Part shown: positions 49,953 to 55,548 of the stretch, piece after piece
Layout of the letters: every line of letters starts with the position of its first letter
How positions within the stretch are numbered: the stretch's first letter is position 1
NCBI RefSeq assembly: GCF_056712565.1
Contig: NZ_CM160072.1
DNA length: 64,000 bases
Direction: 5' to 3' (one strand)
Made by a program: the position numbers and the translations under genes
The notes under the pieces: generated by a model
Databases searched by the model: none
What the model was told of the DNA's origin: nothing
Seen by the model: the letters and a program-made list of their open reading frames with translations, nothing else

Positions 49953-51991
<2,039 letters not shown>

Positions 51992-52837
51992 ATGGCTGAA
52001 GCGCAAAATGCTCCCCTGCTGCCGGGATACTCGTTTAACGCCCATCTGGTGGCGGGTTTAACGCCGATTGAGGCCAACGGTTATCTCGATTTTTTTATCG
52101 ACCGACCGCTGGGAATGAAAGGTTATATTCTCAATCTCACCATTCGCGGTCAGGGGGTGGTGAAAAATCAGGGACGAGAATTTGTCTGCCGACCGGGTGA
52201 TATTTTGCTGTTCCCGCCTGGAGAGATTCATCACTACGGTCGTCATCCGGAGGCTCACGAATGGTATCACCAGTGGGTTTACTTTCGTCCGCGCGCCTAC
52301 TGGCATGAATGGCTTAACTGGCCGTCGATATTTGCCAATACCGGTTTCTTTCGCCCGGATGAAGCGCACCAGCCGCATTTCAGCGACCTGTTTGGGCAAA
52401 TCATTAATGCCGGACAAGGGGAAGGGCGCTATTCGGAATTGCTGGCGATAAATCTGCTTGAGCAATTGTTACTGCGGCGCATGGAAGCGATTAACGAGTC
52501 GCTCCATCCACCGATGGATAATCGGGTACGCGAGGCTTGTCAGTACATCAGCGATCACCTGGCAGACAGTAATTTTGATATCGCCAGCGTCGCACAGCAT
52601 GTCTGCCTGTCGCCGTCGCGTCTGTCGCATTTGTTCCGCCAGCAGTTAGGGATTAGCGTATTAAGCTGGCGCGAGGACCAGCGCATCAGTCAGGCGAAGC
52701 TGCTTTTGAGCACCACCCGGATGCCTATCGCCACCGTCGGTCGCAATGTCGGTTTTGATGATCAACTCTATTTCTCGCGAGTATTTAAAAAATGCACCGG
52801 GGCGAGTCCGAGCGAGTTTAGGGCAGGTTGTGAATAA
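51992..52837 (+). CDS. araC: Arabinose operon regulator AraC, C-terminally shortened (281 aa instead of 292)
   Basis: ORF 51941..52837 trimmed to ATG 51992 ([35 protein letters not shown]...); ends ...[12 protein letters not shown]; the missing tail EKVNDVAVKLS-stop is found 1.8 kb downstream at 54663..54698. Confidence 0.9.
52826..52834. repeat. Left copy of the 9-bp direct repeat GGTTGTGAA flanking the araC-yabI insertion
   Basis: Exact 9-mer also present at 54654..54662; both copies lie in the araC codons Gly-Cys-Glu. Confidence 0.7.
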
Positions 52838-53351
52838 TAAGAAAGAAGGGGGGGAACCCCCTTGCTTTCTTCATCTGACGTTATTTATATATTTCACGGG
52901 GGATTAATTTTAGTTATTTTTAGTTGAATCGTTTTACCTGAATTATTTTTTTTCTTGATAAAATATCGACAACGATTTCTTTTTGTAAAAATAAAACGAA
53001 GGCTTATGTATCGGGATACCCATCATGAACATATTGTCCGGTTGCATCAGGAGAATATATCAAGCGGTTTGTTCATCGTAGGAACACCACATTGAGCGGT
53101 TATGGCAGGCACTTCACGCCACCATAAATGCCGTTCGATGTGGCAGTTGTTGAAAAAAGTACGGCATTCTATGAAAAACGCCAGTTACTCCCTCAGAGGA
53201 GAACATGGTCTGGCAAAAGTGTAGCGGCATCAGGCGCAGCTATCTTTGTAAATTCATTCATAAAATGAATTGTATACAAAAAAATATTGAAAAATAATAT
53301 TTTTCCTTATTGATATTATTTGCTATACGTTTTTTTTGAGGGGAGATTGTG

Positions 53352-54200
53352 ATGAGCAAACGTAACGATATTACTGATGGAATATTTGCAACAACGAAAA
53401 AGTATGGATTAGTTTATACCGAAGAGTTAGGTTGGATCGATTTGGGGCATGCTCAGGGACAAGATGCCAGAATATTAAAAAGAAAATTGGAGCAAGAACA
53501 TTTTTCAACATATTACGATGAATTTCATGATTGGTATTTTCCTGTTGATTATCATCAGGAAATGGGAATTCGGAAAAAAATATTAGGAGTAGATCTTACA
53601 TTTCATACCGGTGTTTATACGAAGGTTATGGTTCGTTCATGTCTTTCACCCACTCTTAAAGCAAGAGTTGCCTTAACGTTAATGTATGGAACTGCGAAGA
53701 GGTTTGAAGCATGGCAAAACTCATTTATTTTTAACTGGTATACTGATAGCGGATTTAGTGCAGAAGATTTAGTCTCAGACTTGATTGGTTTTTATCGTGT
53801 ATTTGGAACAGGCCCCGATCCACTTTTATTGGCAAAACCTTTATCTTACACAAAAGCCTTACAAATATGGGATACATATGGAGCGCCAGGGAATTTTAAA
53901 AATACTGAGTTTACGCCATTCTTATTTACAACCCATCCTCCTTTTAAAAAAAATCAACTAATAAAAAAGAAGCTTCCAGAATGGTTAAATTATATAAAGC
54001 CATTAGATGAGTCTTTTTCAATATTGTTATATAATCAATATAATAATAGACCTGTTACTAATTATTATAAAGATAAAAACAGAATAAATCATGAGTTGTA
54101 TAGTTCATTATCAAGTTCGGGAGCTATAAAGTTTTCAGAATCTCCCTTTGAAAGACCGCTTTTTCTTTTCTTAAACCCTCATTATCCGCACAGGTCGTGA
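53352..54200 (+). CDS. Hypothetical protein, 282 aa, no signal peptide or TM segment (island gene A)
   Basis: ORF 53349..54200; ATG 53352 preferred over GTG 53349 (SD gaggggag 7 nt upstream); MSKRNDITDGIFATTKKYGLVYTEELGWIDLGHAQG...; I cannot assign a family from sequence alone. Confidence 0.6.
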   Translation: MSKRNDITDGIFATTKKYGLVYTEELGWIDLGHAQGQDARILKRKLEQEHFSTYYDEFHDWYFPVDYHQEMGIRKKILGVDLTFHTGVYTKVMVRSCLSPTLKARVALTLMYGTAKRFEAWQNSFIFNWYTDSGFSAEDLVSDLIGFYRVFGTGPDPLLLAKPLSYTKALQIWDTYGAPGNFKNTEFTPFLFTTHPPFKKNQLIKKKLPEWLNYIKPLDESFSILLYNQYNNRPVTNYYKDKNRINHELYSSLSSSGAIKFSESPFERPLFLFLNPHYPHRS

Positions 54201-54206
54201 GTAGAG

Positions 54207-54629
54207 ATGTCAAAATATATTTATATTTTATTATCATTTTTAGTTTTATTCTTTATATTTTTCTATGCTTATATCTCATTGATGTCAAAGGAACATCACT
54301 ATACACAGCATGAACTTTCCCCATTTTTCCTTTATACGCCAGAGAGTTTGCGAAATTTGCCAAACATATCAAACGTAGCCGAGTATAGCTATTACTATAA
54401 TGTTGATGATATGCAAACAAGAGTGATTGTTACATGGCGAAATATAGATAACATTTTTCTTCAGAAAGCAAAGCTAATAGATTTTTTGAAAAGAATGGGA
54501 CCGAGTCTACAAAACGATTGTATATGGTTTTTTCATGATAAAAGTGATTATGCAAATAATTTCCAGCGTTATTGCATCATTGAGCACCGTGATTCTCTGC
54601 AGGTGGAATATTTTGAGACTATCGAATGA
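54207..54629 (+). CDS. Hypothetical small membrane-anchored protein, 140 aa (island gene B)
   Basis: Starts 6 nt after gene A stop on the same strand; N-terminal hydrophobic segment IYILLSFLVLFFIFFYAYISL followed by a ~115-aa soluble domain. Confidence 0.55.
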   Translation: MSKYIYILLSFLVLFFIFFYAYISLMSKEHHYTQHELSPFFLYTPESLRNLPNISNVAEYSYYYNVDDMQTRVIVTWRNIDNIFLQKAKLIDFLKRMGPSLQNDCIWFFHDKSDYANNFQRYCIIEHRDSLQVEYFETIE

Positions 54630-54653
54630 TAGGCAGAGGGTGTCTTTTGTGCC

Positions 54654-54662
54654 GGTTGTGAA
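54654..54662. repeat. Right copy of the 9-bp direct repeat GGTTGTGAA
   Basis: Followed in frame by GAAAAAGTGAATGATGTAGCCGTCAAGTTGTCATAA encoding EKVNDVAVKLS-stop, the displaced AraC C-terminus. Confidence 0.7.
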
Positions 54663-54783
54663 GAAAAAGTGAATGATGTAGCCGTCAAGTTGTCATAATT
54701 GGTAACGAATCAGATAATTGACGGCTTGACGGAGTAGCATAGGGTTTGCAGAATCCCTGCTTCGTCCATTTGATAGGCACATT

Positions 54784-55548
54784 ATGCAAGCATTGCTGGA
54801 ACACTTTATTACCCAATCCACCGTGTATTCATTGATGGCGGTGGTGTTGGTGGCCTTTCTGGAGTCGCTGGCGCTGGTCGGTTTGATTCTACCCGGTACG
54901 GTGCTGATGGCGGGGCTGGGAGCGCTGATTGGTAGCGGTGAGTTAAGTTTCTGGTACGCCTGGCTGGCGGGGATTATTGGCTGCCTGATGGGCGACTGGA
55001 TCTCCTTCTGGCTGGGCTGGCGTTTTAAAAAGCCGTTGCATCGCTGGTCATTTCTGAAGAAGAACAAAGCATTACTCGATAAAACCGAACATGCGCTGCA
55101 TCAGCACAGCATGTTCACCATTCTGGTCGGTCGTTTTGTCGGTCCGACGCGTCCGCTGGTGCCAATGGTGGCGGGAATGCTGGATCTCCCGGTGGCAAAA
55201 TTTATTACGCCGAATATTATCGGCTGCTTGCTGTGGCCACAGTTTTACTTCCTGCCGGGGATTCTGGCGGGTGCGGCGATCGATATTCCTGCCGGGATGC
55301 AGAGCGGTGAGTTTAAATGGTTGCTGCTGGCAACAGCGGTGTTTTTGTGGGTTGGAGGCTGGCTGTGCTGGCGGTTATGGCGCAGCGGTAAAGCGACTGA
55401 CCGTTTGAGTCATTATTTGTCCCGCGGTCGTTTGTTGTGGCTGACGCCGTTGATTTCTGCCATCGGCGTGGTGGCGCTGGTGGTGTTAATTCGCCACCCG
55501 TTGATGCCGGTGTATATCGATATTTTGCGTAAAGTGGTTGGGGTTTAG
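54784..55548 (+). CDS. yabI: DedA-family inner membrane protein YabI
   Basis: 254 aa polytopic membrane protein. Confidence 0.9.
   Translation: MQALLEHFITQSTVYSLMAVVLVAFLESLALVGLILPGTVLMAGLGALIGSGELSFWYAWLAGIIGCLMGDWISFWLGWRFKKPLHRWSFLKKNKALLDKTEHALHQHSMFTILVGRFVGPTRPLVPMVAGMLDLPVAKFITPNIIGCLLWPQFYFLPGILAGAAIDIPAGMQSGEFKWLLLATAVFLWVGGWLCWRLWRSGKATDRLSHYLSRGRLLWLTPLISAIGVVALVVLIRHPLMPVYIDILRKVVGV

Follow-up and report, generated by a model that had tools for sequence, protein, structure and literature searches.

The araC locus and its annotation

The window (the whole stretch of DNA that was analysed, 64,000 nucleotides in length) contains an araC gene which from its annotated start gives an open reading frame of 846 nt and a protein of 281 aa with the C-terminal end ...SEFRAGCE (Table 1). 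Positions 52820–52837 read AGG GCA GGT TGT GAA TAA, i.e., the residues R A G C E and the stop, and a second TAA comes next. The araB gene is found on the minus strand at 49953–51653, 338 bp from the start of araC, and the divergent araBAD arrangement is present. The window matches the chromosome of the E. coli type strain ATCC 11775 with 100% identity, and for this strain RefSeq gives the identical 281-aa AraC CDS (WP_001350361.1) with no pseudogene flag. Genomes free of the insert described below carry an araC of 879 nt encoding 292 aa, with the end ...RAGCEEKVNDVAVKLS, and yabI is located 85 bp further on. Within residues 1–281 the window AraC differs from the K-12-type protein by D7A and R89H alone. 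D7A (codon 7, 52010–52012) falls within the N-terminal regulatory arm; R89H (codon 89) is encoded at 52256–52258.

The first-pass annotation had described this AraC as 11 residues shorter than the K-12 type as the result of an insertion. The difference in length, 281 against 292 aa, is confirmed by the sequence and by RefSeq, and the connection to an insertion also stands, as 1.83 kb of additional DNA separates araC from yabI and the native end of the gene is found as a relic on the far side of it. The difference is not an assembly or sequencing artefact, because the identical structure is present in 486 independent complete genomes.

Table 1. Features at the araC–yabI junction of the window and the observations on which their assignment is based.
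Feature	Position	Strand	Description and basis
araC CDS	51992..52837	+	281 codons and TAA; RefSeq WP_001350361.1
Left copy of the 18-bp imperfect direct repeat (TTTAGGGCAGGTTGTGAA)	52817..52834	+	araC codons 276–281; allele of the inserted DNA
Tandem stops TAA TAA	52835..52840	+	Sequence; 3' ends of araC compared across genera
Remnant of the left end of another island	52838..53043	+	blastn to L003 (strain Eco-15); annotation of L003 and L088
G+C-rich hairpin (AAGGGGGGGAACCCCCTT) with T-rich tail	52846..52873	+	Terminator scan; stem-loop 52846–52863; now 3' of araC
IS630-family transposase remnant	53085..53224	+	Pseudogene fragment; RefSeq "frameshifted; incomplete; missing N-terminus"
ORF283	53352..54200	+	282 aa and stop; hypothetical, DUF4056-related family; module gene 1
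ORF140	54207..54629	+	Hypothetical; module gene 2; N-terminus MSKYIYILLSFLVLFFIFFYAYISL hydrophobic by eye
Displaced native araC 3' end	54645..54698	+	Non-coding relic; both junctions aligned to an empty-site genome; repeat and pattern searches
Native araC–yabI intergenic region	54699..54783	+	Alignment; same as in empty-site genomes
yabI (DedA family)	54784..55548	+	Conserved right-hand neighbour

The junctions of the insert

The relic corresponds to native araC codons 276–292 and their stop, displaced 1,828 bp downstream. It begins with the right copy of the direct repeat (54645–54662, TTTTGTGCCGGTTGTGAA), continues with the 11 tail codons (GAA AAA GTG AAT GAT GTA GCC GTC AAG TTG TCA) and ends with TAA. 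The repeat search placed the starts of the two copies 1828 bp apart, with 15 of the 18 positions identical. When the 64-kb window was searched for the native 18-mer allowing up to three mismatches the two repeat copies were the only sites, and two such matches were found in none of 100 shuffles. Chance is no explanation for the imperfect repeat together with the relic. The last six codons read TTT AGG GCA GGT TGT GAA in the window and TTT CGT GCC GGT TGT GAA at the native end, i.e., the left copy differs by synonymous changes only (AGG GCA for CGT GCC) and the two copies represent distinct alleles. As the copies are different alleles the inserted DNA must be assumed to have carried its own araC terminus, stop and hairpin, and since the native end survives downstream of the insert it was a K-12-type end that was displaced. 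With the last codons, the stop and the hairpin supplied by the incoming DNA, araC was not simply cut. The original description of an insertion that cut araC at its stop is therefore not correct in that respect; the boundary of the foreign DNA lies earlier and the last six codons already belong to a different allele.

The hairpin that follows the stop is stable, with an RNA fold of −21.9 kcal/mol (z = −3.07) for 52826–52885 and an equal or better fold in none of 200 shuffles. The stem-loop is terminator-like, and transcription would be expected to end there. The terminator scan that picked out this hairpin found no terminator-like site on the + strand of the K-12-type araC–yabI intergenic region, in agreement with the earlier remark that the 3' UTR of araC has been altered.

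To the right of the relic, promoter-like sites for yabI were found at 54690–54718 and 54726–54754, and both are present in the empty-site genome too. The spacer that follows codon 281 (AAAGTGAATGATGT...TCATAA; 54663–54783 in the window and the equivalent in loci L009–L026) is strongly conserved in Escherichia, Citrobacter, and Salmonella, and this holds whether it is translated or not, which suggests a constraint unrelated to AraC, possibly in the regulation of yabI.

A recombination breakpoint within araC was also sought, by comparing SNP patterns with one genome of K-12 type and one carrying the tricarboxylate transporter island described below. Over roughly 52257–52750 the window araC is nearer to the latter. 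No breakpoint is claimed, because such a pattern is inseparable from ordinary phylogroup divergence.

The mosaic insert and its two-gene module

The insert of 1,828 bp is a mosaic made up of the start of a sugar-kinase/tricarboxylate transporter island, an IS630 remnant and a two-gene module of low GC content. Its first part shares homology with the spacer next to araC and with the start of a PfkB-family kinase gene, up to codon ~13 (ATG at 53006). The IS630 remnant is annotated in the same way in CFT073, UTI89, and Nissle. The module (53352–54629) has a GC content of 33% against 53% for araC.

Searches of Pfam, NCBIfam, PADLOC, and PHROGs gave no match for ORF283. There are 307 homologues in Enterobacterales, and 14 of 41 family members matched DUF4056 weakly. 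An AlphaFold2 model of ORF283 (pLDDT 85.7) had no fold match in the PDB. A partner ORF of ~140 aa is found 3' of the ORF283 homologue in nearly every genus examined, while in Citrobacter freundii-type contigs the partner is 90–100 aa or not called. ORF140 is fast-evolving, with 24–55% identity between genera. A T6SS effector–immunity pair was considered for ORF283 and ORF140. The small partner ORF is nearly always present downstream, a neighbouring hcp gene was seen in a single context (Pectobacterium versatile, L102), and neither family nor fold searches gave a match to known effectors. In CFT073 (L085, 6262–7109) and Nissle 1917 (L087, 1913–2760) ORF283 is split by a frameshift and in UTI89 (L086, 11587–12195) it is shortened, with ORF140 intact in all three, so that in some lineages the module is losing its first gene by decay.

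No gene for a tyrosine or serine recombinase or an integrase was found in the insert by way of the ORF list, RefSeq annotation or profile searches, and no recombinase gene is called at the module loci of Citrobacter or Salmonella either. A search for terminal inverted repeats in the insert was likewise negative. Direct repeats resembling att sites do span the gene end, as they would in an integrase island, and the recombinase of such an island is missing. Insertion of a transposon or IS element with duplication of its target site was considered and rejected, because the repeat copies are nonidentical and represent two alleles, the ends are not inverted, and the only IS sequence is an internal IS630 fragment of 140 bp.

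Other DNA at the araC–yabI junction

The araC–yabI site is clearly an insertion hotspot, with at least four different cargoes across strains. One of these is an island of 5.5 kb that begins right after the araC stop and encodes a PfkB-family kinase, a protein of the dihydrodipicolinate-synthase family and a TctCBA tripartite tricarboxylate transporter (L003, 6462–11634; L080, 9084–14255; L088). Klebsiella spallanzanii carries the same Tct island at the same site, with 79–89% protein identity. E. coli strains with the Tct island (e.g., Eco-15 and AR_0055) share the 281-aa end of the window araC (TTTAGGGC.GG.TGTGAATAATAAGAAAGAAGGGGG), and the homology extends as far as codon ~13 of the kinase gene. 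They differ from the window in that the island is complete, in that the IS630 remnant, the ORF283/ORF140 module and the relic of the native end are absent, and in that the region upstream of yabI is unlike that of the window. D7A was also missing from the sole 281-aa allele of the Tct-island type that was compared (Eco-15). In strain 21221 (L004, 6232–7350) ISKpn26 is inserted in codon ~279 of an araC of the Tct-island type, giving a chimeric AraC of 312 aa and a truncated island.

Strain SCPM-O-B-8794, a divergent GTDB representative labelled E. coli (L005, 8843–16843), encodes an AraC of 281 aa, with numerous synonymous differences in the gene, and has another cargo directly after the TAA. 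Its ORFs of 201, 879, 250, 248 aa and so on have sizes which suggest a chaperone–usher fimbrial operon, and yabI is absent within 8 kb. Two 6.5-kb contigs in assemblies of Photorhabdus namnaonensis and Xenorhabdus szentirmaii (L006 and L007) contain a K-12-type E. coli araC whose native downstream spacer adjoins unrelated sequence. These contigs are probably contamination with a pBAD-type vector.

Frequency among E. coli genomes

The 281-type end with its downstream sequence is present in 1,066 of 5,426 complete E. coli genomes (~20%), and a lesion specific to one strain was rejected on this ground. The exact insert of the window accounts for 486 of the 5,426, where it is always single-copy and chromosomal, at least 98% identical and located between araC and yabI; the module was never found on a plasmid or at another site in these genomes. 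Carriers include 536, LF82, UM146, CE10, CFT073, UTI89, and Nissle 1917, and the AraC protein of the last three is identical to that of the window. About 570–580 complete genomes have the Tct-island form with the 281-aa end, a figure obtained by subtracting the 486 genomes with this insert from the 1,066 with 281-type ends.

The end of AraC among Enterobacteriaceae

In a protein search a length of 281 aa and the end ...SEFRAGCE were found for AraC of Klebsiella, Enterobacter, Buttiauxella, Cronobacter, Dryocola, and others, and the RAGCE end is also found in AraC of Salmonella and most Citrobacter. At the DNA level the comparison was made with araC loci from one genome per species. Citrobacter werkmanii, C. 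youngae, two further Citrobacter, Salmonella arizonae, Klebsiella, and Kluyvera encode 281 aa and read TGT GAA TAA AAA GTG AAT GAT G... (TGTGAA TAA AAAGTGAATGATG). K-12-type E. coli, E. albertii, two other Escherichia species, C. amalonaticus, and C. sedlakii encode 292 aa and read TGT GAA GAA AAA GTG AAT GAT G...TCA TAA (TGTGAA GAA AAAGTGAATGATG...TCATAA). From codon 281 to the ATG of yabI there are 121–122 nt in Escherichia, Citrobacter, and Salmonella. As the spacer is of nearly constant length across these genera, the 11-residue K-12 tail EKVNDVAVKLS is a single-base stop-loss, TAA to GAA, with read-through into former intergenic DNA.

The first TAA of the window, at codon 282, is in the stop position of Citrobacter, Salmonella, Klebsiella, and Kluyvera araC. 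Compared with the 281-aa AraC of Salmonella, Citrobacter, Klebsiella, and Enterobacter, the window protein has the same length and the same SEFRAGCE terminus with TAA at codon 282, and 86–94% identity. The difference lies downstream: the other genera have the native spacer (AAAGTGAATGATG...) between the stop and yabI, whereas the window has foreign DNA after the stop, and its native spacer, in which GAA is present as in Escherichia, sits 1.8 kb away. K-12 AraC (292 aa) is encoded at the same locus, divergently from araBAD, has the same domain architecture and is 99% identical to the window protein. The latter is without the C-terminal EKVNDVAVKLS, its stop and 3' UTR come from the inserted DNA, and a hairpin follows directly after the stop.

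Measured against the family, this araC does not have its stop upstream of the usual end; it stops where its orthologues do. The view that a full-length protein has been truncated therefore does not hold, as 281 aa with ...SEFRAGCE is the usual terminus in Enterobacteriaceae and the 292-aa form is the stop-loss extension. Whether AraC of reference strains is 281 aa long, the point on which the first-pass annotation had made its reading depend, has two answers: it is not so for K-12 (292 aa) but it is for most related genera. The window allele is ordinary because its stop matches that of most related bacteria and because about a fifth of E. coli share the ending.

Domain content and regulatory function

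The window AraC scores 506.4 bits against a cut-off of 208 with the NCBIfam AraC equivalog profile NF007860, residues 2–281 corresponding to profile positions 7–286 of 292. The arabinose-binding and dimerisation domain (Pfam AraC_binding, cupin-type) covers residues 22–160 (E = 9.7e-27), and the structures 2AAC, 1XJA, 2ARC, and 2ARA of the N-terminal domain match residues 1–178. HTH_18 covers residues 201–278 (profile positions 2–79 of 80) and HTH_AraC residues 240–277, and both helix-turn-helix motifs are inside residues 201–278. It had been proposed that the change lies beyond the second helix-turn-helix, and with HTH_18 ending at residue 278 this is borne out. PDB entry 2K9S, the DNA-binding domain of AraC (107 residues), aligns to residues 175–281 and ends exactly at the window terminus. 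The fragment of residues 175–281 is a working sequence-specific DNA-binding module (PMC6884087), and the boundary at these residues is taken from the match to 2K9S together with the use of the fragment in that study.

Because the binding and dimerisation domain and both helix-turn-helix motifs are complete, canonical regulation of araBAD and of other ara promoters by the 281-aa protein would be expected, including activation of PBAD in response to arabinose and repression by looping. Its function is very probably intact, as had been supposed from the start, judging from the domain content and from 2K9S, which ends at residue 281. Expression of araBAD needs AraC. An araBAD deletion gave Nissle 1917 the severest mouse-gut colonisation defect among the mutants tested, 2.7 log (PMC3547972). 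As Nissle needs araBAD and its AraC is identical to that of the window, the regulon presumably works in a strain with this allele; this evidence is indirect, for it shows that araBAD is used and says nothing on whether induction kinetics are normal. It is possible that the 11-residue tail has a subtle role in K-12, e.g., in stability or solubility. D7A, in the regulatory arm, and R89H could change regulation independently of the tail and are as plausible a source of any altered regulation as its absence. In the literature that was searched nothing dealt directly with the AraC tail or with islands between araC and yabI, and no induction assay of the 281-aa allele was found.

Origin of the arrangement

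It is highly probable that the window araC is an ordinary and functional allele with the family-typical end at residue 281, that a mosaic displaced the native end of the gene, and that the K-12 tail is a young add-on. From the directly observed relic and the stop position in other genera we infer the following order of events. In Escherichia and in two Citrobacter species the ancestral TAA would have changed to GAA, letting translation run 11 codons into former intergenic DNA. An Escherichia ancestor of the 292-aa type would later have taken in foreign DNA that overwrote the end of araC. In this event the mosaic of 1,828 bp would have been placed between araC and yabI in this lineage, bringing its own araC codons 276–281, the double TAA and the hairpin, and the native Escherichia-type end (codons 276–292) would have been pushed downstream and kept as the relic. 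The 281-aa protein produced would regulate araBAD and other ara promoters canonically. The arrangement resembles that of islets which replace the 3' end of their target gene, as at tRNA genes, in that the gene end was rebuilt by incoming DNA and the original end persists as a repeat beyond the insert. It differs from them in lacking an integrase and terminal inverted repeats and in showing no mobility among E. coli genomes.

The opposite order of events is conceivable. The module, the 281-aa araC and the duplicated terminus could be old and shared by descent with Citrobacter and Salmonella, with the K-12 form arising later, which we consider unlikely. The stop of the relic would in that case have decayed (TAA to GAA), and recombination between the repeats would have removed the module and spliced the decayed relic onto araC, a sequence of steps of similarly low probability. 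There are observations that speak for this order. First, an ORF283 homologue and a small partner are present at araC–yabI in C. freundii-type contigs and in one Salmonella enterica genome; in the former they lie between perfect 17-bp copies of the araC end (CGCTGGATGTGAATAAA), and in the latter the flanking repeat is degenerate. Second, the identities of the ORF283 family, 77% between Citrobacter and Salmonella and 69–70% from E. coli to either, parallel those of the flanking genes. Third, a spacer specific to each genus follows the right-hand repeat copy. Direct repeats are, moreover, a known substrate for precise deletion.

Set against an old module are the empty 292-aa sites of E. albertii and two other Escherichia species, so that the module haplotype would need to have persisted as a polymorphism across speciation. 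The window relic is also nearer to the empty-site sequence of E. coli than the E. albertii sequence is, and the GC content of the module, 33–37%, is still far under that of its neighbours. The left flank in the window consists of debris of another island and an IS630 fragment and not of a simple Citrobacter-like junction, and in C. amalonaticus and C. sedlakii GAA is found where no module is present, so that a direct point mutation suffices to give the longer protein. Because of the empty sites, the two Citrobacter species with GAA and the composition of the left flank, entry of foreign DNA into a 292-type ancestor, or at least an origin of the 292-aa form by point mutation, is tentatively favoured over an old module. 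Were the old module nevertheless correct, the araC end (...GGNTGTGAA TAA) would be a recurrent insertion point in enterics with a toxin–immunity-like islet there, enclosed by repeats of the araC terminus in Escherichia, Citrobacter, and Salmonella, the loss of which made the K-12 tail; we regard this as improbable. The textbook K-12 AraC tail would then be a resurrected piece of junk DNA.

It is quite improbable that the module is a site-specific mobile element which attaches at the araC terminus (...GGNTGTGAA TAA) and became integrated independently in three genera. A direct repeat of the same terminal araC bases does flank the module in E. coli, Citrobacter, and Salmonella, and in other Enterobacterales the family is found at many unrelated chromosomal sites, some of which adjoin fragments of integrase, resolvase or Tn3-type genes. 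The insert itself, however, offers only the IS630 remnant, with neither recombinase nor inverted ends, and it occupies one site in single copy, never on a plasmid, throughout the 5,426 E. coli genomes. The closest homologues, those of Trabulsiella and Enterobacter sp. ENT03, are located in the araD–polB interval, where the flanks have no 9-mer in common, and the window repeat copies, with 15 of 18 positions identical, are different alleles and no fresh duplication.

That a full-length 292-aa AraC was cut by insertion in its 3' end, a lesion which may alter the function or expression of the regulator, is very unlikely: Escherichia species are generally of the 292-aa type, such an end was displaced in this lineage as the relic testifies, and the 3' UTR was changed, but the stop falls at the family-consensus codon rather than at a breakpoint of random position, the last codons are those of a homologous allele and differ only synonymously, major successful lineages are fixed for the allele, the solved DNA-binding domain stops at residue 281, and a true disruption looks different, as the chimeric end of strain 21221 illustrates.

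Implications

The finding is real but ordinary, i.e., the window araC is a common and catalogued natural allele. Little consequence for arabinose biology is to be expected, because the protein is catalogued in RefSeq, is carried by hundreds of well-studied strains and has the terminus normal for its family. The sole mildly novel angle is the possibility that a repeat-flanked islet common to three genera had a part in shaping the K-12 tail.

The case illustrates that with K-12 as the yardstick a family-typical gene end looks damaged, when it is the K-12 tail itself that is derived. No truncation flag is due for this araC in annotation and variant-calling pipelines. Where PBAD circuits are used in Nissle, CFT073, and other B2 strains, the host AraC is the 281-aa protein with D7A and R89H. 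The araC–yabI junction, finally, provides a handy natural example of an insertion hotspot.
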